From contig JAUNLL010000002.1 in NCBI GenBank assembly GCA_030532275.1, positions 1 to 45,271 on the forward strand: a stretch of 45,271 nucleotides of DNA. Direction: 5' to 3'. This stretch comes from Peptoniphilus sp. Lineage in GTDB: Bacteria; Bacillota; Clostridia; Tissierellales; Peptoniphilaceae. Below the pieces are notes generated by a model. The model was not told the origin of the DNA. It made no database searches and saw nothing but the letters and a program-made list of their open reading frames with translations. A program made the translations under genes and the position numbers. Shown here in pieces: positions 2,580 through 44,527 of the stretch; positions within the stretch are counted from its first letter, which is position 1; each line of letters starts with the position of its first letter.

Positions 2580-3638
2580 ATGAAGGAAAGAAAGAGGAGC
2601 AGAATGCAAAAAGGGGAGATGGAAGAAAAAATTCTCAAGGCGAAACCGGGAATACCCATGCTGATATTATTAATTATAACGCATGTTTTATCAGTGTTTA
2701 TCTTTGTTAAGGGACTTGAACTCGTCGCCAGAGATATTCCCAACGGAGCTGTGCTAATAATTTTTGGAGTTATTTGGTTTTTTGTAAACATAGTTCTATA
2801 CTTCGGATTTAAAGTAATCAAGCCGCAAGAGGCCTTAGTACTTACACTCTTCGGAAAATACTACGGTACTTTAAAGGAAACGGGATTTTACTATGTAAAT
2901 CCCTTCAGTTCAGGCTTTAATCCCGCAGCCAATACATCCTTGGGACAAAGCGGAGATGTAAGCACAAAGAAAACTAAAATAATCCGTGCCGACGGAAGTA
3001 ATTTAAGCGCTGAAATGCCCTCGGGCAAAAAGATATCACTCAAGGTGATGACCTTAAACAACTCAAAGCAAAAGATAAATGACAGACTGGGAAATCCCGT
3101 AGAAGTGGGCATAGCTGTCATGTGGAGAGTGGTGGATACTGCCAAGGCGGTATTTGAAGTGGACAACTACAAGGAATTTCTATCCTTGCAATGCGATTCT
3201 TCCCTAAGGGACATAGTGAGAATTTATCCCTACGACTCCGTGCCGGGAATTGACACCACAGGAGATGGCGAATCAGATGAAGGAAGCCTTAGAGGTTCCA
3301 GCACCATGGTCGCACATAGAATCAAAGAAAAAATTCAAGAAGGAGTAGATGTAGCAGGCATTGAAATAATCGATGCAAGAATCACATATCTTGCCTATGC
3401 ACCGGAAATAGCAGCGGCAATGCTCCAAAGACAACAAGCCGCAGCAGTTGTAGACGCAAGAGCGACAATAGTGGACGGAGCTGTGGGAATGGTGGAAATG
3501 GCTCTTGAAAAACTCAGCGAAAAAGGCGTAGTTGACCTTGATGAAGACAAAAAGGCAACCATGGTATCCAATTTGATGGTGGTACTCTGCAGCAACAAAG
3601 ACCCACAACCCGTGGTAAATAGCGGAAGTATTTATTAA
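2580..3638 (+). CDS. SPFH/band-7 domain membrane protein
   Basis: AGGAGG RBS; two TM helices, then FGKYYGT...[16 protein letters not shown] and [17 protein letters not shown] typical of this SPFH subfamily. Confidence 0.9.
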
Positions 3639-4676: not shown

Positions 4677-4826
4677 ATGGGAGATGTGGAAAAGAGAAGA
4701 AAATTCGGAAGAGCCTTTTTGATTTTGGGAATAGTTCTCTTAGCTTTGGGAATATACAGAGGCGAGATGGTAACGGTATTTAGAAAAGCTGTGGTGATCT
4801 GCCTGGAATGTATAGGCATAGATTGA
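4677..4826 (+). CDS. Small membrane protein with C-terminal CxxC (CD1871A-like family)
   Basis: One TM helix, then RGE..TV..KA..ICLECIG; lies between TlpA and a 4Fe-4S protein. The start could also be GTG at 4686. Confidence 0.75.
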   Translation: MGDVEKRRKFGRAFLILGIVLLALGIYRGEMVTVFRKAVVICLECIGID

Positions 4827-4846
4827 GGGCAGTAAGGCGGAGTGTA

Positions 4847-5704
4847 ATGAAAGATAAAAAGAACAGCAAAATTTCAAATTTCCGAACAGGTTTTCAAATT
4901 CTGTTCACGGCTTTGACCAACGGATATGCTTTGGGATTTGCGAAGGGAAAAATTTATCAAGGTCCTGTTAAAAATCTATGTGTGCCGGGACTTAACTGCT
5001 ATTCCTGTCCCGGTGCCTTGGGATCCTGTCCCATAGGAGCCTTGCAAGCGGTGGCCACCAGCAGAGATTTCAACATATCCTTTTACGTTATTGGATTTTT
5101 GATGATAATAGGCTCTCTAATAGGCAGATTTGTATGCGGTTGGATGTGTCCCTTCGGATTGTTGCAGGACTTACTCCATAAAATACCCTTTCCCAAGAAG
5201 ATCAAGACCTTCAAGGGAGAGCGCCACCTGCTCAAAGCTAAGTACTTAATACTTTTGATTTTCGTCCTTTTGCTTCCCATCACTATCACCGTCGGCGGCG
5301 GATATGGAAAACCGTGGTTTTGCAAGGTGATCTGTCCCTCGGGAACTCTCATGGGCGGAATTCCTCTGCTCTTGACAAATGAGAGTTTGAGAAAGGCGGC
5401 AGGGCTTATTTTTTCATGGAAGGTCACCGTGCTTTTGATGATCATTTTTTTGTCCATGGTAATACATAGACCCTTTTGCAAGTACCTGTGTCCCTTGGGT
5501 GCCATCTATGGAGGTTTTAATAAAATTTCTCTATACCAATACACCGTCGATGAGCACAAGTGTATTAAATGCGACCAGTGCTACCGTCAATGCAGCATGA
5601 ATGTGAAAATTTACGAAAATGCCACAAGTGCTGAGTGTATTCGTTGCGGAGAGTGTACCAAGGTGTGTCCCACCAATGCCATTTCGACAAAATTTAAAAA
5701 ATAA
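4847..5704 (+). CDS. Polytopic 4Fe-4S binding membrane protein (NapH/CcoG-like)
   Basis: Repeated CxxxCP motifs (CGWMCP, CKVICP, CKYLCP), TM helices and two C-terminal ferredoxin-type Cys clusters. Confidence 0.85.
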   Translation: MKDKKNSKISNFRTGFQILFTALTNGYALGFAKGKIYQGPVKNLCVPGLNCYSCPGALGSCPIGALQAVATSRDFNISFYVIGFLMIIGSLIGRFVCGWMCPFGLLQDLLHKIPFPKKIKTFKGERHLLKAKYLILLIFVLLLPITITVGGGYGKPWFCKVICPSGTLMGGIPLLLTNESLRKAAGLIFSWKVTVLLMIIFLSMVIHRPFCKYLCPLGAIYGGFNKISLYQYTVDEHKCIKCDQCYRQCSMNVKIYENATSAECIRCGECTKVCPTNAISTKFKK

Positions 5705-5708
5705 TTTT

Positions 5709-5737
5709 ATCCTCTCTATGGAAGGGAGGATTTTTTT
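5709..5737 (+). terminator. Intrinsic terminator
   Basis: ATCCTCTCT/AGGGAGGAT stem plus T-run. Confidence 0.75.
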
Positions 5738-5810
5738 GTAGTTAAATATATATGAGATTAAAATTGAGGAAAAAATAGTGATTTAATTTATTTATTTAAT
5801 AAAATAAAGC

Positions 5811-5839
5811 TGGACAAGGAAGTAATTGTGTGTTATGAT
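5811..5839 (+). promoter_or_regulatory. Sigma-A promoter of the aro operon leader
   Basis: TGGACA-17 nt-TATGAT with extended -10 TG and an AT-rich upstream tract. Confidence 0.7.
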
Positions 5840-5868
5840 TCTTAAAACTTTGAAGAAGGAGAATAATC

Positions 5869-5970
5869 ATGAAAGCCATTACTAATGCACAATACTATTA
5901 CAGCTTTTACTTTACTTATTTTTATAGTAGAGCTTTTTTGGGTTGTGCAGACGAGGAAACTTTTTCTTAG
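5869..5970 (+). CDS. Tyr/Phe-rich leader peptide (putative attenuator) of the aro operon
   Basis: AAGGAG RBS; MKAITNAQYYYSFYFTYFYSRAFLGCADEETFS*, with 6 Tyr + 3 Phe in 11 consecutive codons, placed between the promoter and terminators upstream of aroF. Confidence 0.85.
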   Translation: MKAITNAQYYYSFYFTYFYSRAFLGCADEETFS

Positions 5971-5999
5971 TTAGATAAGATCTTATTAAAAAGTAGTCT

Positions 6000-6027
6000 A
6001 AGCTCCCAAAAATACGGGGGCTTTTTT
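6000..6027 (+). terminator. Attenuator terminator 1
   Basis: AAGCTCCC-loop-GGGGGCTT followed by a T-run. Confidence 0.8.
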
Positions 6028-6057
6028 GTTGGATAATCTTACTTAAAAGGATTGCCT

Positions 6058-6085
6058 AAGCTCCCAAAAATATGGGAGTTTTTTT
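6058..6085 (+). terminator. Attenuator terminator 2 (duplicate of terminator 1)
   Basis: AAGCTCCCA-loop-TGGGAGTTT with a T7 run; shares the 17-nt block CTAAGCTCCCAAAAATA with terminator 1. Confidence 0.8.
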
Positions 6086-6108
6086 ATTATAGCGAAGGGG
6101 GAGAAATT

Positions 6109-7122
6109 ATGATAATAAAATTAAAAAGAAATCCGAAGGAAGAAGAAGTAGAAAATTTGCGCCGTTGGATAGAGGGACGGGGAATAGAGGTCATGACTTC
6201 CGTGGGAGCCAACATCACAATTTTGGGATTGGTGGGAGATACCACAAAGCTAGACATCGACTTGCTTAAAACTATGTCCATAGTGGAGGATGTAAAGAGG
6301 ATTCAAGAACCCTACAAAGCTGTAAATCGTCGTTTTCATCCTGAGGATACTGTGATCACCTTGGAGGACGGAACTAAAATAGGGGGCGACAATTTCACCA
6401 TGATCGCAGGACCTTGCTCCGTTGAATCTGAAGAACAGGTCATAGAGATAGCAAGGCGAGTTAAAAATGCAGGAGCAAATATTTTGCGTGGCGGTGCCTT
6501 CAAACCGAGGACTTCTCCCTACTCCTTTCAAGGCATGGGAACAGACGGACTGGAGTTGTTGCTCAAGGCGAAGAAGGAAACGGGACTGCCCATAGTTTCC
6601 GAGGTGATGGACGCATCTCAACTTCAATACTTCAAAGATGTGGATATTCTTCAAGTGGGAGCCAGAAATATGCAAAACTTCCATCTTTTAAAGGAAGTGG
6701 GAAAATTGGATAAACCCGTTTTATTGAAGAGAGGACTTTCAGCAACCTATGAAGAGTGGTTGATGAGTGCTGAATACATCATGTCAGGCGGAAATAAAAA
6801 TGTAATTTTGTGCGAAAGAGGAATCCGAACCTTTGAAACAAAGACTAGAAATACTCTGGATATTTCTGCAATTCCGGTGTTGAAGTCCGAAACTCACCTG
6901 CCCATAATCGCAGATCCCTCCCATGCCACCGGCACGAGAAGGTTGGTTGAACCCCTTGCAAAGGCAGCAGTGGCTGCAGGTGCTCACGGTGTGATGATCG
7001 AAGTTCACAACAATCCCGAAGGTGCCCTTTGTGACGGTCCTCAATCCCTTGATCCCGAACAATTCGATGGCATAGCTGAAAAACTTAAAAAACTTCGCAA
7101 AACCATAGAGGAAATAGGATGA
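6109..7122 (+). CDS. aroF: DAHP synthase, type I-beta with N-terminal regulatory domain
   Basis: IAGPCSVES, GAFKPRTSPYSFQG, GARNMQNF, CERGIR, DPSH; GGGGGAG RBS before ATG 6109. Confidence 0.95.
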   Translation: MIIKLKRNPKEEEVENLRRWIEGRGIEVMTSVGANITILGLVGDTTKLDIDLLKTMSIVEDVKRIQEPYKAVNRRFHPEDTVITLEDGTKIGGDNFTMIAGPCSVESEEQVIEIARRVKNAGANILRGGAFKPRTSPYSFQGMGTDGLELLLKAKKETGLPIVSEVMDASQLQYFKDVDILQVGARNMQNFHLLKEVGKLDKPVLLKRGLSATYEEWLMSAEYIMSGGNKNVILCERGIRTFETKTRNTLDISAIPVLKSETHLPIIADPSHATGTRRLVEPLAKAAVAAGAHGVMIEVHNNPEGALCDGPQSLDPEQFDGIAEKLKKLRKTIEEIG

Positions 7123-7973
7123 AAATAGGAGTTGTAGGCTTGGGATTGATGGGCGGAAGTTTTGTCAAGGCGATTAAAGAATACGGAAGTGAAGAGGTCT
7201 ACGGCTTTGACAAAAATGATGAAGTTCTCAAAAGAGCGTTGAAGGATGGAAGCATAGATGATGTTTTGACGAGGGAAAATATCACGCAGTGCGACTTGGT
7301 AGTTCTTGCCTTGATGCCCGGAATAGCCATAGATTTTGTAAAGGAAAATCACACTTTGATAAAGGGACTTCTCCTTGATTTTTGCGGAGTGAAGAGAGAA
7401 GTGGAAAGACAGATTCTTCCCATTGCAGTGGAAAAGGGATTTTCCTACATGGGCGGACATCCCATGGCAGGTAGAGAAGTGGGCGGATATGAACACAGCA
7501 GCAAGGACCTCTACCAGGGGGCGTCGATGATTTTAGTAGAAAATGAAACGTCCCGAGGAAAGGGGAAAAACTTGGAAGAGTTTTTTTATAATTTAGGATT
7601 TGCACAGATAAAATACTCCGATTCCTCAACTCATGACAGGGTGCTTGCCTATACTTCTCAATTGGCCCATGTGGTGTCCAATTCCTTTGTCCAGTCGCCC
7701 ACTCACAAGGAGGAATACGGATATTCGGCGGATAGTTTAAAGGATTTGACCAGAGTTGCCACCTTGGATGTGGACATGTGGACGGAACTGTTTTTTGACA
7801 ACAAGGATTTTTTATACGATGAAGTCATGAGGATCAGCGACCATTTGAGCCAGTATGCAAGGGCGATTAAAGAGGAAGATGAAACCCTGCTGAAAAAACT
7901 GTTAAGCGCCGGTTGCATCGCCAAGAGGGAAATGGAAGAAAGAAGGAAGAATAATGGCGGAAATTCAAATTAA
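7119..7973 (+). CDS. tyrA: Prephenate dehydrogenase
   Basis: GLGLMGGS Rossmann motif, GGHPMAG, HD...TSQLAH, DLTRVA. Confidence 0.92.
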   Translation: MKIGVVGLGLMGGSFVKAIKEYGSEEVYGFDKNDEVLKRALKDGSIDDVLTRENITQCDLVVLALMPGIAIDFVKENHTLIKGLLLDFCGVKREVERQILPIAVEKGFSYMGGHPMAGREVGGYEHSSKDLYQGASMILVENETSRGKGKNLEEFFYNLGFAQIKYSDSSTHDRVLAYTSQLAHVVSNSFVQSPTHKEEYGYSADSLKDLTRVATLDVDMWTELFFDNKDFLYDEVMRISDHLSQYARAIKEEDETLLKKLLSAGCIAKREMEERRKNNGGNSN

Positions 7974-9009
7974 TACAGGTAAGCCCTATTCTGTCTTTGT
8001 GGAGAGGGGACTATTCCAAAAAATCGGGCCCATGCTCAAGGATAATATAGGTGGAAAAGCCCTCATACTCACCGATGAAAGAGTGGGAAAACTACATGCT
8101 GATTTAATTTTAAGTCAGTTGCAAAGTCAAGGCATAGAAGGAAGTATCTATGTTGTAGAGGAAGGCGAAGGCAGCAAATCACTAAGGGTCTACGGTGAGA
8201 TTTTGGAATACATGGCGGCGAACAATTACCACAGAAATGATACCGTCATATCTCTTGGAGGAGGAGTGATCGGCGATTTAGGCGGCTTTGTTGCGGCTAC
8301 CTTTCAAAGGGGAATGGAATACATCCAAATGCCCACAAGCCTTTTGGCGGCTGTGGATTCTTCCGTGGGTGGAAAAACCGCTTTGAATTTGCAAGAGGGC
8401 AAAAATTTGGTGGGAGCCTTTAAGCAACCCCTTGCAGTGTACTGTGATCCCGAAGTATTTGCAACCATGGAAGATGAAAGATTTGCCGACGGAGTGGCGG
8501 AATCCATAAAGTACGGAATCCTCTTTGATAGAGATTTTTTCAATCTATTTAAAAATCCTCTGAAAAAAGACGATGAACGCCTTGAGAAAGTGGTGGAAAA
8601 AGCTGTGAAGTACAAGGCAAAGGTAGTGGCTGCCGATGAATTTGAACGAGATGAGAGAAAACTTTTAAATCTCGGTCACACCGTGGGACACAGCGTGGAA
8701 AAGGCAAGTGATTTTAAAATAACTCACGGACATGCCGTCGCCATAGGAACAGCTGTCATGGCGAGAGCCTGCAACAAAAGGAAGATTTTAAAGGATGAGG
8801 AAAAGGATGAAATACTGGAGGTTTTAGAGAAAAACAATTTGCCCGTCAATACATCCTTTTCCGTGGAAGAGCTTTTTAAATCTGTCTACAAGGATAAAAA
8901 AAGTGACGGAAAGAACATAACTCTGGTGGAGATAGAGAGAATTGGAAGGTGCAGACTGAAGAAAATTCCCCTTCCGTCCTTTAGAGAATACATTGAGGAG
9001 GGTCTTTGA
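7954..9009 (+). CDS. aroB: 3-dehydroquinate synthase
   Basis: GGGVIGDLGGF, DSSVGGKT, LNLGHT.GH, HGHAVAIG. Confidence 0.95.
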   Translation: MAEIQINTGKPYSVFVERGLFQKIGPMLKDNIGGKALILTDERVGKLHADLILSQLQSQGIEGSIYVVEEGEGSKSLRVYGEILEYMAANNYHRNDTVISLGGGVIGDLGGFVAATFQRGMEYIQMPTSLLAAVDSSVGGKTALNLQEGKNLVGAFKQPLAVYCDPEVFATMEDERFADGVAESIKYGILFDRDFFNLFKNPLKKDDERLEKVVEKAVKYKAKVVAADEFERDERKLLNLGHTVGHSVEKASDFKITHGHAVAIGTAVMARACNKRKILKDEEKDEILEVLEKNNLPVNTSFSVEELFKSVYKDKKSDGKNITLVEIERIGRCRLKKIPLPSFREYIEEGL

Positions 9010-10268
9010 TGATTGTGGAAATCACTCCCAAAAAATTGAGGGGAGAAATGGAAATACTGTCTTCCAAATCTGACGGACACCGTCTGTTGATTTGCGCGGC
9101 TCTCAGCGATAAAAAAACGGAAGTGCTGATAAATAACAGCTCCGAAGACATAGAGGCGACCATGGGTTGTCTGAGGGCTTTGGGAGCGGAGTTTCAAAGG
9201 ATTCCCGGAGGTTACGAGGTAACTCCCGTAAGGGATATTCCCGACTATGCGGAGATAAATCCCGTGGAAAGCGGCTCGACGTTGAGATTTATGTTGCCCG
9301 TTGCCACTGCCCTTGTGGAGAAGATCCGCTTCACGGGACGAGGAAGGTTGCCGAAAAGACCGATTAAAGATTTACAAGATGAGATGAAAAAAAAGGGTGT
9401 GAAATTTTCTCAAGATTTTTTGCCCTTCTGCACAGAGGGAAAATTAAAGGGAGGAAATTTTAAATTCCGTGGCAATATCAGTTCACAGTACATATCGGGA
9501 ATACTGTTGGCGGCTCCACTTTTAGGGGGCAGAGTCACAGTTGAAATCGAGGGTGAATTGGAATCTCGTGCCTATGTGAACATGACCGTGGACAGCATGA
9601 GAAAATTCGGAGTGGAAGTAAGGGCAGAGAATAATTCTTACATAGTGGATAGCGAAGGATACAAAAGTCCGGGCGGAGTTTCTGCTGAGGGAGATTTTTC
9701 CAACGGAGCCTTTTTTCTGGCGGCGGGAGCCTTGGGAGGACCTGTGAAGGTGTCGGGACTTTCTGAAAACACCTTGCAGGGAGATGCGAAGATCGTAGAC
9801 ATATTGAAGGAAAGAGGAGCAGTTTTGGAAAAGGATGATGCTCTGATTTTTTCAAAGGGAGAGGAAAGAGCGCTTAATGTGGATCTGTCACAGATTCCCG
9901 ATCTGCTTCCCGTGCTGGCTGTGGTGGCGAGTTTTTCTGAGGGAAAAAGTGTGTTTTACAACGGAAAAAGATTGAAATTGAAGGAGAGCGACAGACTTGA
10001 AACCACTGCAAAGATGATTGAGGACTTGGGCGGAAGGGCGCAGGTGACGGAGGACGGATTGATAGTTGAAGGTGGAGGACTAAGGGGCGGAAGGACGTCT
10101 TCCTTCGGAGATCACAGAATTGCCATGGCAGCTGCCATTGCATCCTGTAGAGCCGAGGAGAAGATAATCATCGAGGGAGCCGAAGCGGTGAACAAGTCCT
10201 ATCCCGATTTCTTTGGAGATTTAGAAAAAATAGGGGGCGAGATAAATGTCATCCACATGGGGAAATAA
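9009..10268 (+). CDS. aroA: EPSP synthase
   Basis: SKS..HR, ESGSTLRF, SSQYISG, KESDR, DHRIAM, KSYPDF; the ATG overlaps the aroB stop (TGATG). Confidence 0.95.
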   Translation: MIVEITPKKLRGEMEILSSKSDGHRLLICAALSDKKTEVLINNSSEDIEATMGCLRALGAEFQRIPGGYEVTPVRDIPDYAEINPVESGSTLRFMLPVATALVEKIRFTGRGRLPKRPIKDLQDEMKKKGVKFSQDFLPFCTEGKLKGGNFKFRGNISSQYISGILLAAPLLGGRVTVEIEGELESRAYVNMTVDSMRKFGVEVRAENNSYIVDSEGYKSPGGVSAEGDFSNGAFFLAAGALGGPVKVSGLSENTLQGDAKIVDILKERGAVLEKDDALIFSKGEERALNVDLSQIPDLLPVLAVVASFSEGKSVFYNGKRLKLKESDRLETTAKMIEDLGGRAQVTEDGLIVEGGGLRGGRTSSFGDHRIAMAAAIASCRAEEKIIIEGAEAVNKSYPDFFGDLEKIGGEINVIHMGK

Positions 10269-11343
10269 TATTAAAATATCTATTTTTGGAGAATCGCATG
10301 GAAAAGCTGTGGGAGTTGTCATTGACGGATTGCCCTCAGGAGAGGAAGTGGACGAAGAAAAACTGTTGGACTTCATGAAAAGACGAGCGCCGGGACAAAA
10401 ACTGACCACGGGAAGAAAAGAAGCCGACCTTCCCCACATACTGTCGGGAATTTACCAGGGAAGAACCACGGGCAGTCCTCTCTGTGCAATTATTGAAAAT
10501 AAAGATCAGCGCTCAAGGGATTATTCCAACTTAAAGGATGTACCACGCCCTGCTCATGCCGATTTGACAGCCTATTTTAAATACGGACAATTCGCAGATA
10601 TGAGAGGTGGCGGACATTTTTCGGGAAGGCTTACAGCACCTCTGTGCATAGCAGGTGGAATTGCAAAACAAATTTTGGAAAGGCGAGGAATTTTTGTAGG
10701 GGCGCAACTTTTCTCAGTGGGCGAAGTGGAGGGCAGGAGTTTCAGAAGGGCGGATTTAAGCCTTGATGAGGTGCTTTCAGCAGGCAGAAGAGAATTTCCC
10801 ACAGGAGATGAAGAAACTGAAGATAAAATGAAAGAATTGCTAGGGGAAGTATCATCGCAGGGAGATTCCATAGGGGGAAGTGTTGAATGTGCAGCCCTAG
10901 GTTTTCCCGCGGGAATCGGAGGTCCCATGTTCAAGGGAATGGAGAACGAAATCGCACAGATGATCTTCGGTATTCCCGGCGTGAAAAGTTTGGAATTCGG
11001 TTCGGGAGTGGAAGCAACTAAGATGAGAGGCTCTCAGCACAACGACCCCATTGAGATAGAGAAGGGAGCAATTCGCACTAAGACAAATAACGCAGGAGGA
11101 ATAAACGGGGGAATAACCAACGGTATGCCCATAATCATCAGGGTGGGAATGAAACCCACACCCTCCATAGGATTGGAGCAGGAGTCCATCAGTCTTTCAA
11201 AGATGGAAAAGGAAAAGCTGTTGATTAAGGGAAGGCACGATCCTTGCATTGCCGTTAGAGCAGTGCCCGTGGTGGAGGCTGCCGTGGCTGTGGTATTGTT
11301 GGATCAATGGTTAGGAGCGGGATATGGATTTAAAAGAGCTTAG
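10246..11343 (+). CDS. aroC: Chorismate synthase
   Basis: FGESHG, RPAHAD, RGGGHFSGR, GRHDPC. Confidence 0.95.
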   Translation: MSSTWGNNIKISIFGESHGKAVGVVIDGLPSGEEVDEEKLLDFMKRRAPGQKLTTGRKEADLPHILSGIYQGRTTGSPLCAIIENKDQRSRDYSNLKDVPRPAHADLTAYFKYGQFADMRGGGHFSGRLTAPLCIAGGIAKQILERRGIFVGAQLFSVGEVEGRSFRRADLSLDEVLSAGRREFPTGDEETEDKMKELLGEVSSQGDSIGGSVECAALGFPAGIGGPMFKGMENEIAQMIFGIPGVKSLEFGSGVEATKMRGSQHNDPIEIEKGAIRTKTNNAGGINGGITNGMPIIIRVGMKPTPSIGLEQESISLSKMEKEKLLIKGRHDPCIAVRAVPVVEAAVAVVLLDQWLGAGYGFKRA

Positions 11344-12460
11344 GGAACAAATCAACGAAATTGATAAAAATATATTGGAAGCCTTTACGGAGAGAATGGA
11401 AGTTTCTCGTGAAATTGCAAAGGTGAAAAAAGAAAAGGGCCTGAGTTTGGAGAACAAGGTGAGAGAGAGGGAGATACTGGACGGAATCACCGAAAAAACC
11501 GGAGATTTATCCCACTATGCAAGGCTTTTGTATTCGACGCTCTTCGATTTGAGCAAGTCCTATCAATCGCAATTCCTTTTTACAGAGGGAGAATTTGAAA
11601 GACAGTTGCAGAAGGCGGCGGAAAACACTCCCAAAATTTTCCCGAAGAAGGCGAAGATTGCAGTACAGGGAAGAGAGGGTTCCTATTCGCAACAGGCATC
11701 GGATCACTTGTTTTCACAGGGCAAGCTGTTGTACTTTCACACCTTTGAGGAAGTATTTGATGCAGTTGAGCGAGAGATTTGTGATTATGGTGTACTGCCC
11801 TTGGAAAATTCATCCAAGGGTTCGGTGAAGGAAGTCTACGATTTAATGGAAAGAAAGCAATTCTTCATCGTTGCATCTTACAGACTGTTAATTCACCACG
11901 CTCTCATGGCGAAAAAGGGAGTTGCAGAAGAAGAGTTAAGGGAAATAATCTCCCACGCTCAAGCTCTGGAGCAGTGCAGTGAATATTTGAGAAGCATTGA
12001 AAATGTGAAGGTGGGTTCTGTGGAGAACACAGCGGTGGCGGCAAAGATCGTCAGCGAATCACCTAGCAGAGAGATTGGAGCCATATCCTCATCTCACTGT
12101 GCCGATTTGTACGGATTGGAAGTTTTAAAGGAAGGAATTCAGAACAGCGACAACAATTACACACGCTTCATCTGCATTTCCAAAAAAATGGAAATCTATC
12201 CCGGAGCAAGTAAAATATCCTTCAGAACTACTGCTAAGCACGAGCCGGGCGGATTGTATAAAATCATTGCCCAGTTTGCAGCCTTGGGACTTAATCTCAC
12301 AAAGATAGAAAGTCGTCCCATAATAGGAAAGGATTTTGAATTTTTATTTTATTTTGATTTTGAAGGATCGGTGCATATGCCCGAGGTTTTGGGATTGCTC
12401 AGCGCATTGAAGAGAGAGAACAAGAAATTTGTATTTTTAGGAAATTATTTGGAAAGGTAG
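11324..12460 (+). CDS. pheA: Bifunctional chorismate mutase / prephenate dehydratase (P-protein)
   Basis: N-terminal CM domain (LREQINEID), PLENS, SHAQALEQC, NYTRF, and ACT motif LTKIESRP. Confidence 0.93.
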   Translation: MDLKELREQINEIDKNILEAFTERMEVSREIAKVKKEKGLSLENKVREREILDGITEKTGDLSHYARLLYSTLFDLSKSYQSQFLFTEGEFERQLQKAAENTPKIFPKKAKIAVQGREGSYSQQASDHLFSQGKLLYFHTFEEVFDAVEREICDYGVLPLENSSKGSVKEVYDLMERKQFFIVASYRLLIHHALMAKKGVAEEELREIISHAQALEQCSEYLRSIENVKVGSVENTAVAAKIVSESPSREIGAISSSHCADLYGLEVLKEGIQNSDNNYTRFICISKKMEIYPGASKISFRTTAKHEPGGLYKIIAQFAALGLNLTKIESRPIIGKDFEFLFYFDFEGSVHMPEVLGLLSALKRENKKFVFLGNYLER

Positions 12461-12463
12461 CAT

Positions 12464-13699
12464 ATGAAATTCGGATTATTGGGAGCTAATTTGGGACACA
12501 GTTTTTCCAGGGAAATTCATAACAGATTGGGTGACTACACCTACGAGTTTTTTGAGCGAAGAGAAGATGAAATTGAAGAGTTGTTTAAAAATCCCGATAT
12601 TGCAGGATTTAACGTGACAGTTCCCTACAAGCAAAGCGTGATTAAGTACTGCGATGAAGTGGATGAGGACGCTCTGAGCATCGGAGCGGTAAACACCGTA
12701 GTAAAAAACGAGGGGCGATCAGTGGGATACAATACCGACATCGACGGATTTTTATTTCAAGTGGAAACTTCTGGTATTTCCGTGGAAGGAAAAAAGGTCT
12801 TGATTTTAGGAGAGGGCGGAACGTCAAACACCGTGCATCGTGCCATGGAAAAATTGGGCGCAGGGGAAATACTCAAATTTTCACGGAGAGGACAGCTGAA
12901 GTTCAAAGATTTGGAAAATCATTTTGACGGTGAGATAATAGTCAACTGCACTCCCGTGGGAACCTATCCCAAGAACATGGAAAGCCTTGTGGATCTAAGG
13001 GACTTTTCGGATTTGGAGGGTGTTTTGGACGTGGTGTACAATCCTCTCAGAACCAAGATGATTTTGCAGGCGGAGGAATTAGGCATAAAAAACAATTCCG
13101 GATTGGGAATGCTCGTGGTGCAGGCAAAGATTGCATCGGAGTATTTTCAGAGGACTAGCATACCTCACGGTGAAGTTTTTAAAATTCTAAGGGAGATTGA
13201 AAGGGAATCGGAGAACGTAGTGCTAATAGGAATGCCGGGCAGCGGCAAGAGTGCTCTTGGGCAGAAGATAGCCGAGGCTTTGAAAAGACCCTTCATAGAC
13301 ATAGATGAAGAGATAGAAAGAGCTGTGGGCAAGTCCATCCCTGAAATATTTAAAGAAGATGGAGAGGGATTTTTCCGTGAAAGAGAAACCGAGATCACCG
13401 AGAAATTCGGCAAGAATAGGGGAATGGTAATTTCCACAGGCGGCGGCACGATTTTAAAGGAAAAAAACAGGCAGGCATTAAAACAAAACGGCAGAATATA
13501 CTTGATCCGTCGACCTCTTGAAGAGTTGAGCACCAAGGGCAGACCCCTTTCAGAGGGCGGATTGATGAAATTGCAAAAATTATATGAAGAACGTCGACCT
13601 CTTTATGAAAAATTTTGCGATTATTCCGTGGATAATGAGTTTTTTGGAAAAACAGTACAGGATATAATAGGAGAGTTTTATGAAAATCATCGTCATTAA
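12464..13699 (+). CDS. aroE: Fused shikimate dehydrogenase - shikimate kinase (AroE-AroK)
   Basis: N-half: HSFS, NVTVPYK, GAVNT, NTD. C-half: P-loop GMPGSGKS, FRERE, STGGG, RPL. Confidence 0.92.
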   Translation: MKFGLLGANLGHSFSREIHNRLGDYTYEFFERREDEIEELFKNPDIAGFNVTVPYKQSVIKYCDEVDEDALSIGAVNTVVKNEGRSVGYNTDIDGFLFQVETSGISVEGKKVLILGEGGTSNTVHRAMEKLGAGEILKFSRRGQLKFKDLENHFDGEIIVNCTPVGTYPKNMESLVDLRDFSDLEGVLDVVYNPLRTKMILQAEELGIKNNSGLGMLVVQAKIASEYFQRTSIPHGEVFKILREIERESENVVLIGMPGSGKSALGQKIAEALKRPFIDIDEEIERAVGKSIPEIFKEDGEGFFRERETEITEKFGKNRGMVISTGGGTILKEKNRQALKQNGRIYLIRRPLEELSTKGRPLSEGGLMKLQKLYEERRPLYEKFCDYSVDNEFFGKTVQDIIGEFYENHRH

Positions 13700-14123
13700 C
13701 GGGCCAAATATGAATATGCTGGGCATTAGAGAACCGGATATTTACGGCAGAAAAACCTATGCAGATTTAATAAATATGATAGAAGAAGAATACAAGGACA
13801 AGAATTTGGACATAGAATTTTATCAGTCCAATCACGAGGGATGCATAGTGGATAAAATTCAGGATATGTACGGACAGAGGGATGCCATAGTCATCAATCC
13901 CGCTGCCTACACTCATACTTCCATAGCCATATTGGATGCATTGAAAAGCGTCGCCCTCCCTGCGGTGGAGGTTCATTTGACAAAGGTGGAGGACAGAGAG
14001 GACTTCAGAAGAATTTCCTATCCGGGAAAGTACTGTGAAAAAACCTTTGCGGGACTGGGATTTCAAGGATATATAGAGGCCATCGACTACTTGATTGAAA
14101 AATATGGCAAAGATCATGAATAA
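13680..14123 (+). CDS. aroQ: Type II 3-dehydroquinate dehydratase
   Basis: NGPNMNMLG.REP..YG, QSNHEG, INPAAYTHTS, EVH. Confidence 0.95.
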   Translation: MKIIVINGPNMNMLGIREPDIYGRKTYADLINMIEEEYKDKNLDIEFYQSNHEGCIVDKIQDMYGQRDAIVINPAAYTHTSIAILDALKSVALPAVEVHLTKVEDREDFRRISYPGKYCEKTFAGLGFQGYIEAIDYLIEKYGKDHE

Positions 14124-44443: not shown

Positions 44444-44527
44444 GCGGGTGTGGCGGAACGGCAGACGCGCACGGTTCAGGTCCGTGTAAGGCAACTTGTG
44501 GAGGTTCAAATCCTCTCACCCGCACCA
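44444..44527 (+). tRNA. tRNA-Leu (anticodon CAG)
   Basis: Acceptor stem GCGGGTG/CACCCGC followed by A-CCA; anticodon arm CACGG-TTCAGGT-CCGTG; long variable arm; T-loop GGTTCAAATCC. Confidence 0.97.

Follow-up and report, generated by a model that had tools for sequence, protein, structure and literature searches.

A predicted Tyr/Phe leader-peptide attenuator with a duplicated terminator upstream of the aro operon of a Peptoniphilus species

Introduction

As a rule, Firmicutes rely on T-boxes. In the attenuator of the enterobacterial his operon, chained alternative hairpins pass the position of the ribosome on to one terminator. Older comparative attenuation studies from the groups of Gelfand and Lyubetsky reportedly may also cover mixed Tyr/Phe leaders.

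The system closest to the one presented here precedes aroF in Corynebacterium glutamicum. Its leader, aroR, carries the codons Phe-Tyr-Phe and, as excerpted, responds to Phe and not to Tyr (PMC11802643); a mixed Phe/Tyr leader before the aroF operon of this species also appears in PMC4046766. The uORFC-13-1 motif of Acholeplasma combines a promoter, an RBS, a Phe-coding uORF and a terminator directly before aroF; attenuation was proposed from sequence, and the motif is known from Acholeplasma and environmental sequences (PMC8632094). Leader-peptide attenuators reported from Firmicutes include that of S. aureus ilv-leu, which contains Ile and Leu codons and answers to Leu (PMC5794164), and His leader peptides of the B. 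cereus group, Peptostreptococcaceae and Erysipelotrichales (PMC9413887, PMC2965389). Furthermore, Shewanella aroF is listed as a Tyr-tRNA attenuator (PMC2659441), and a riboswitch candidate precedes aroFBC-tyrA of E. faecium (PMC4448216). In C. difficile, an RNA 3' end was mapped 38 nt before the start of aroF2, which has the same gene length as the aroF studied here (PMC8237595), and this end is interpreted as premature termination for which no riboregulator is known (bioRxiv 10.1101/2020.08.10.244764).

The excerpts of PMC4833913 and PMC3082878 do not mention a clostridial aro leader family, and titles and beginnings of abstracts from the mostly open literature contained neither a Tyr/Phe leader in Clostridia or Tissierellia nor twin terminators under one leader peptide. 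A preliminary description of the locus had presented a mixed Tyr/Phe leader in control of a whole aro operon as possibly novel. This was overstated, as C. glutamicum aroR and leader peptides of Firmicutes are, by their published summaries, precedents. New in this study are an uncatalogued clostridial leader family and a terminator duplication at the species level; the mechanism itself is textbook.

The aro operon and its leader ORF

We analyzed a stretch of 45,271 nt from the contig JAUNLL010000002.1 of Peptoniphilus sp., referred to as the window; the genome it belongs to (G000) is 84% complete. Eight overlapping or abutting genes, aroF-tyrA-aroB-aroA-aroC-pheA-aroE/K-aroQ, extend from 6109 to 14123 (Table 1). 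Their profile matches agree with the operon content that had been proposed, i.e., aroF onward with pheA and tyrA and without trp genes. A TTG-start frame from 6052 was ruled out as the aroF start, since the family match begins at 6109, behind an RBS of its own. A single ORF encodes shikimate dehydrogenase and shikimate kinase as a fusion.

trpA was found neither in G000 nor in four congeners, and matches to trpB in G000 were far below cut-off. On another contig of this genome (C138), an SD-led 20-codon ORF with four Trp codons lies upstream of 2603-3383 (minus strand). It is unique among 339 regions, and no terminator was called for it. At the far side of the window, a tRNA gene (44444-44524) and a minus-strand ORF near the contig end (44619-45188), presumably a fragment of an OLD/TOPRIM-type nuclease, possibly mark the edge of an island.

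A terminator-like hairpin sets the upstream 4Fe-4S membrane-protein gene apart from the aro promoter. The putative promoter, from which a transcription start at about 5846 is deduced, is by itself not above chance, with five promoter-like sites found and 3.5 +/- 1.8 in shuffles; it is nearly invariant in the congener G001. The leader region is AT-rich (28% GC), and its ORF is devoid of Trp codons and without a match in Pfam and NCBIfam searches. Promoter, RBS, the 33-codon ORF, its run of six Tyr and three Phe without Trp, and the hairpins were all recovered as listed in the preliminary description.

To assess chance occurrence, intergenic regions of G000 with a length of 150 nt or more, delimited with a crude gene caller, were scanned for SD-led short ORFs with 8 Tyr/Phe in 10 codons. 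A single one of 339 regions, the leader of the window, has such an ORF; the runner-up scores 6, and none of 3000 dinucleotide shuffles reached 8. The leader ORF is not a product of chance.

Table 1. Features of the aro leader and operon in window coordinates. Segment, terminator function and helix assignments are predictions.
Feature	Position	Strand	Remarks
Upstream gene terminator-like hairpin	5709..5738 (hairpin 5709-5731)	+	closes 4Fe-4S membrane-protein gene 4808-5704
Putative promoter, sigma-70-type	5811..5839	+	10/12 consensus matches, 17-nt spacer, extended -10 TG
Shine-Dalgarno of leader ORF	5856..5861	+	7 nt 5' of ATG; identical hexamer in L002, L003, L004
Leader ORF, 33 codons	5869..5970	+	
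Segment 1, predicted anti-antiterminator 5' strand	5886..5914	+	pairs with 5923-5949; -18.4 kcal/mol
Control codons 9-19	5893..5925	+	6 Tyr and 3 Phe, all within predicted stall window (codons 3-20)
Segment 2 core, predicted antiterminator 5' strand	5935..5942	+	perfect 8-bp complement of 6005-6012 and 6063-6070
Duplication unit 1, 58 nt	5970..6027	+	49/60 columns identical to unit 2
Terminator 1, terminator-like hairpin	6000..6027	+	5' arm 6000-6007, 3' arm 6016-6023, U run to 6027; -12.1 kcal/mol
Predicted relay helix	6016..6065	+	terminator 1 3' arm with terminator 2 5' arm; -15.2 kcal/mol including enclosed hairpin
Duplication unit 2, 58 nt	6028..6085	+	
Terminator 2, terminator-like hairpin	6058..6085	+	hairpin to 6081, U run 6079-6085; -11.6 kcal/mol
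aroF, DAHP synthase with N-terminal ferredoxin-like domain	6109..7122	+	NF006421 above cut-off; PF00793, PF18152
tyrA, prephenate dehydrogenase	7119..7973	+	PF02153 and PF20463 above cut-off; NCBIfam hits below cut-off
aroB	7954..9009	+	TIGR01357 above cut-off
aroA	9006..10268	+	TIGR01356 above cut-off
aroC	10246..11343	+	NF003793 above cut-off
pheA, chorismate mutase-prephenate dehydratase	11324..12460	+	PF01817 and PF00800 above cut-off
aroE-aroK fusion, shikimate dehydrogenase and kinase	12464..13699	+	both halves match, below whole-protein cut-offs
aroQ, type II dehydroquinase, last gene of run	13680..14123	+	NF003805 above cut-off

Conservation across related aroF loci

The comparison started from 110 aroF loci, 30 of one search and the best 80 of 561 from a second one. 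The window itself, two duplicates, four loci with less than 300 nt upstream and 12 whose match lacked the N-terminal domain were left out, resulting in 91 loci. In this sample, which draws on the best 80 of 561, SD-led ORFs with at least 5, 6 and 7 Tyr/Phe/Trp in 10 codons precede 64, 41 and 28 of the 91 aroF genes, compared with 1, 0 and 0 of 91 on the reverse strand. The preliminary description had pointed to aroF relatives as the place where further Y/F-rich ORFs behind an RBS should occur, and aromatic-rich ones are found there. Since the genomes are kin, 64 of 91 reveals conservation and not 64 independent events. Among the 12 short-match loci without the N-terminal domain, one has an aromatic leader.

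Six further near relatives were added from a DNA search of family genomes and a metagenome search. An automatic hairpin finder, which miscalled L014, called a terminator downstream of 62 of 66 leaders, counting that of the window. The leader peptides diverge, while the aromatic run, the RBS and the downstream hairpin are kept; across the nearest subfamily, a G/S-K-A-F/Y-L/F-G motif 3' of the run is kept as well.

Several loci deviate from this pattern. L008, L009, L015, L016 and L017 as well as genus g11 have a full-length aroF without an SD-led aromatic leader; L017 retains, 57 nt before its aroF, a hairpin followed by a U run. At L006 (G032:C49), two aroF copies are adjacent, the first of them without leader. 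L050 and L076 are records of Coriobacteriales (Actinomycetota) with a clostridial-type aroF and an aromatic leader, nested among Bacillota in a quick tree; either the operon was transferred together with its attenuator, or the records are mis-binned. A different leader type, in which Phe codons are spaced, Tyr is scarce and a single Trp is conserved, is found in a clade of mostly Oscillospiraceae (L059, L061, L065, L066, L070, L074, L080, L081, L084, L091, L095, L104, L106, L108, and L110). These leaders precede aroF-aroB-aroA, or aroF-aroA in the case of L095; the downstream genes of L061 lie beyond the sequence seen.

Predicted folding of the leader

In an equilibrium fold of the window leader with both terminator arms complete, the terminators dominate at every ribosome position (P > 0.9), and hence the switch must be kinetic. 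Because this fold gave no switch, a ribosome scan was run on RNA that ends where the 3' arm begins. The scan calculates the cost of freeing the 5' arm while the ribosome masks the 13 nt beyond its A site. Freeing the arm of terminator 1 is predicted to cost 4.1-9.4 kcal/mol for a ribosome whose A site lies in codons 3-20; from codon 21 onward the cost does not exceed 1.7, and without ribosome it is 1.1. The predicted stall window of codons 3-20 thus takes in every Tyr and Phe of the run, with the last Tyr (codon 19) at its edge. The antiterminator helix 5935-5942:6005-6012 has a predicted probability of 0.95 in the stalled state versus 0.01 without ribosome. Applied to controls from E. coli, the same scan peaks at Phe6-14 of pheL and at Trp10-11 of trpL.

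The profile extends to most relatives. In 51 of 62 leaders, a ribosome at the aromatic codons makes freeing the arm costlier by 2 kcal/mol or more compared with a ribosome at the stop codon, and in 46 of 62 costlier than without ribosome; 11 of the 62 are without a stall profile.

Tests against randomized or exchanged sequences gave a varied picture. Whole-leader folding is mildly better than that of shuffles (z = -2.09), and shuffle tests on the window only are borderline for the antiterminator (26/500) as well as the anti-antiterminator (30/300). A broad comparison of own versus swapped duplexes was essentially null: the own pairing ranked in the best 5% for 2 of 16 cluster representatives and for 10 of 61 leaders. 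Within the nearest subfamily (24 leaders in 7 sequence groups), the antiterminator segment prefers its own terminator over the terminators of other groups, with a permutation p = 0.00065 for a segment that was picked after the pairings had been viewed. This narrower test placed 11 of the 24 leaders in the best 10%, the window's own pair lying outside (fraction 0.18). Exclusive pairing of antiterminator and terminator, open only with a ribosome on the control codons, is seen in the prediction, with borderline support from shuffles and a mixed outcome of the swaps.

Judged from its sequence, the aro leader shows every feature of a classical attenuator of the pheL/trpL kind that is accessible at this level. 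The ribosome-stalling attenuation of the aro operon suggested in the preliminary description is well supported by conservation, position and predicted folding, and we regard attenuation as such as highly probable.

A duplicated terminator and a predicted relay

Beyond the preliminary description, the terminators turn out to have diverged from a tandem duplication of 58 nt. Both units share an identical 17-nt core comprising 5' arm and loop and differ at 11 of 60 columns. An assembly artefact as the source is judged unlikely on account of these differences. The terminator arm recurs in one of 62 leaders, and the congeners G001 and G002 carry a single unit. No second carrier was found by DNA search in 237 other genomes of the family (36 with a match, loci from 29) or in two metagenome hits. 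The single hairpin of G001 and G002 reaches -13.9 kcal/mol, compared with -12.1 and -11.6 for the copies in the window.

When the 2:3 pairing is kept, the freed 3' arm of terminator 1 is predicted to disarm terminator 2: the relay helix forms with P = 0.93, and freeing the arm of terminator 2 would cost 6.9-8.6 kcal/mol, versus 1.0-1.3 once the ribosome has reached Phe23 or the stop codon. In an unconstrained fold, the relay and terminator 1 are of similar probability (0.35-0.46 and 0.47-0.60, respectively). If terminator 1 is folded and leaks during the stall, segment 2 is predicted to bind terminator 2 directly (P 0.66-0.79). The relay pairing follows automatically from any duplication of a terminator and hence is not evidence of selection; its helix is present in one genome only, without support from covariation. 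We put the chance that the relay operates in vivo slightly above even.

A competing view accepts the attenuator and sees terminator 2 as an unregulated or partly regulated leftover of a chance duplication, which only lowers expression or is blocked by segment 2 directly. In its favor, the duplication is absent from both congeners that carry the leader and limited to one of 62 leaders; each copy is also weaker than the single hairpin of the congeners, and segment 2 is equally complementary to 6063-6070, with direct binding predicted when terminator 1 is folded. However, the 17-nt core has stayed identical while 11 of 60 columns changed, as expected if both arms stay switchable, and an unregulated second terminator would reduce the induced output. 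We consider this view a serious contender whose odds fall somewhat below even.

Tyr and Phe as signals

Both Tyr and Phe are present in 58 of 62 leader cores; three cores are without Tyr and one is without Phe. Gene order was compared for the 57 leaders with enough downstream sequence, 24 with tyrA next to aroF and 33 others. Where tyrA directly follows aroF, all 24 leaders contain at least three Tyr (mean 4.7); the remaining leaders average 2.0. The Phe content is equal (4.1 and 3.9, respectively). On a quick tree, this link is represented by only three independent pairs, which all agree or tie at the threshold of three Tyr, and thus it cannot reach significance (sign test p 0.25-0.5).

Two leaders are extreme in their composition. 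L011 (G053) has nine Phe and no Tyr, with pheA following aroF, and L090 has six Tyr and no Phe, with tyrA following aroF. A Trp codon occurs in 4 of 24 leaders with tyrA next to aroF versus 25 of 33 otherwise; this association was lost in the independent-pairs test. No link was shown between Trp codons and trpA in the genome either, trpA being present for 2 of 4 leaders with Trp and for 2 of 9 without.

A response to Tyr as well as Phe is plausible, as the predicted stall window contains codons of both amino acids and 58 of 62 cores retain the two. Provided that attenuation takes place, we expect both amino acids to be effective, with some reservation.

Alternatively, the attenuator might answer to one amino acid only, which could be Tyr or, following the example of aroR, Phe; the remaining codons would then be redundant or kept for pairing. 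The excerpted account of aroR, where the Tyr of Phe-Tyr-Phe is without effect (PMC11802643), sets a precedent. Codons 9-15 double as segment 1, so that their letters are constrained by pairing, and TAT/TAC and TTT are one base apart and interchange among near relatives; the four cores lacking one of the residues point in the same direction. Yet the six Tyr and three Phe of the window are spread through the predicted stall window, the two residues coexist in nearly all cores, and Tyr codons in the 24 leaders are almost equally TAT (45) and TAC (41). The higher Tyr content where tyrA follows aroF, though it rests on few independent contrasts, likewise speaks against a single input, which we consider unlikely.

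Far less probable is a nascent peptide that acts as an arrest peptide sensing free Tyr/Phe or a pathway metabolite within the ribosome tunnel, comparable to TnaC, or that acts in trans. The G/S-K-A-F/Y-L/F-G motif kept across the nearest subfamily would suit this idea, but the motif stretch coincides with segment 2, its letters change along with the terminator loop from group to group, and the peptides have little else in common. Moreover, a stall in the run is predicted to switch a biosynthetic operon on, which fits starvation and not product excess.

T-box, riboswitch, TRAP and Rfam comparisons

Searched with Rfam at gathering level, the whole window contains tRNA only and no regulatory RNA. 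In particular, the T-box model (RF00230) has no match at E<=10 over 5650-6200, which confirms the absence of a T-box motif reported in the preliminary description. The best weak match of the aro leader is Phe_leader (RF01859) with 27.6 bits and E 0.017, compared with a gathering cut-off of 55 bits; Trp_leader (RF00513) scores 18.2 bits versus a cut-off of 41. The aro leader is not a member of the Rfam families Phe_leader or T-box.

T-box matches elsewhere in G000 number 14, of which 7 are above cut-off and none is located on the contig of the aro operon. TRAP (PF02081) has no match in this 84% complete genome. One weak T-box match of 38 bits (G000:C158:10906-11028) precedes a putative tyrS, a gene which we take to be tyrosyl-tRNA synthetase from motifs in its N-terminus. 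This suggests T-box control of tyrS alongside leader-peptide control of the pathway.

Control of the terminator by a T-box, a TRAP-like protein or a riboswitch, with the ORF as a by-product of U-rich sequence, is the least probable explanation of all, since, for all the T-boxes used elsewhere in this genome and the AT-rich leader region, neither a T-box or riboswitch match at the aro leader nor TRAP in the 84% complete G000 was found, and an RBS with an open frame and in-frame aromatic codons occurs in 64 of 91 loci, compared with 1 of 91 on the opposite strand.

Proposed mechanism

Our preferred reading is a ribosome-sensed transcription attenuator in which a stall caused by uncharged tRNA-Tyr or uncharged tRNA-Phe keeps both hairpins from forming; we assign it a probability of roughly 0.65. 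The leader ORF would be translated while being transcribed. When amino acids are plentiful, the ribosome is predicted to pass codon 21 and to cover 5935-5942, whereupon terminator 1 folds; polymerases leaking past it would meet terminator 2. When Tyr or Phe is short, the ribosome would wait in codons 9-19 and mask segment 1, allowing 5935-5942 to pair with 6005-6012. This pairing would take three C of the terminator 5' arm before the 3' arm exists. The unused 3' arm (6016-6023) is then predicted to pair with the 5' arm of terminator 2 (6058-6065), such that one stall opens both. If the leader remains untranslated, segment 1 would hold segment 2 and transcription would end.

In its most comprehensive form, the interpretation combines a single ribosome stalled on either Tyr or Phe, two serial terminators opened through an RNA relay to which one tandem duplication of the terminator gave rise in a single step, and a clostridial leader family, uncatalogued so far, in which the mix of codons is adjusted to the content of the operon, with more Tyr if tyrA follows aroF and more Trp if only genes of the common pathway follow. 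We put this combination forward as a tentative one, with odds of about one in three. If it is true, the duplication would make the OFF state tighter without impairing the ON state.

Leader peptides for which the Rfam, Pfam and NCBIfam searches gave no match appear to govern the synthesis of aromatic amino acids in many Clostridia and Tissierellia. The leader family is a candidate cause of the unexplained premature termination before C. difficile aroF2. Furthermore, the species with two linked terminators and its congeners with one terminator and a nearly identical leader form a natural pair, which bears on the questions whether duplication alone tightens a switch and whether mixed codons give two-input sensing.

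Comparison with known attenuators

By description, the aro leader resembles C. glutamicum aroR in having mixed Phe/Tyr codons before a DAHP synthase operon, with stalling that raises transcription in aroR and is predicted to do so in the window. aroR is actinobacterial and, in its excerpted account, has three codons and responds to Phe only, whereas the window leader has nine control codons and two terminators and is followed by the complete shikimate pathway together with tyrA and pheA. The Acholeplasma motif, likewise compared by description and not by alignment, codes for Phe, and its summary makes no mention of Tyr. The ilv-leu and His leaders of Firmicutes are, as summarized, classical attenuators like the one proposed here, devoted to other amino acids and operons.

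With pheL-pheA and trpL-trpE of E. coli, the window leader shares the predicted 1:2 / 2:3 / 3:4 layout and the same kind of ribosome-scan profile. In contrast to both, it is longer, its control codons specify two amino acids and its terminator is duplicated, and it stays below both Rfam cut-offs. Unlike the chained hairpins of the enterobacterial his attenuator, the extra link predicted in the window is a second complete terminator that originates from a duplication.
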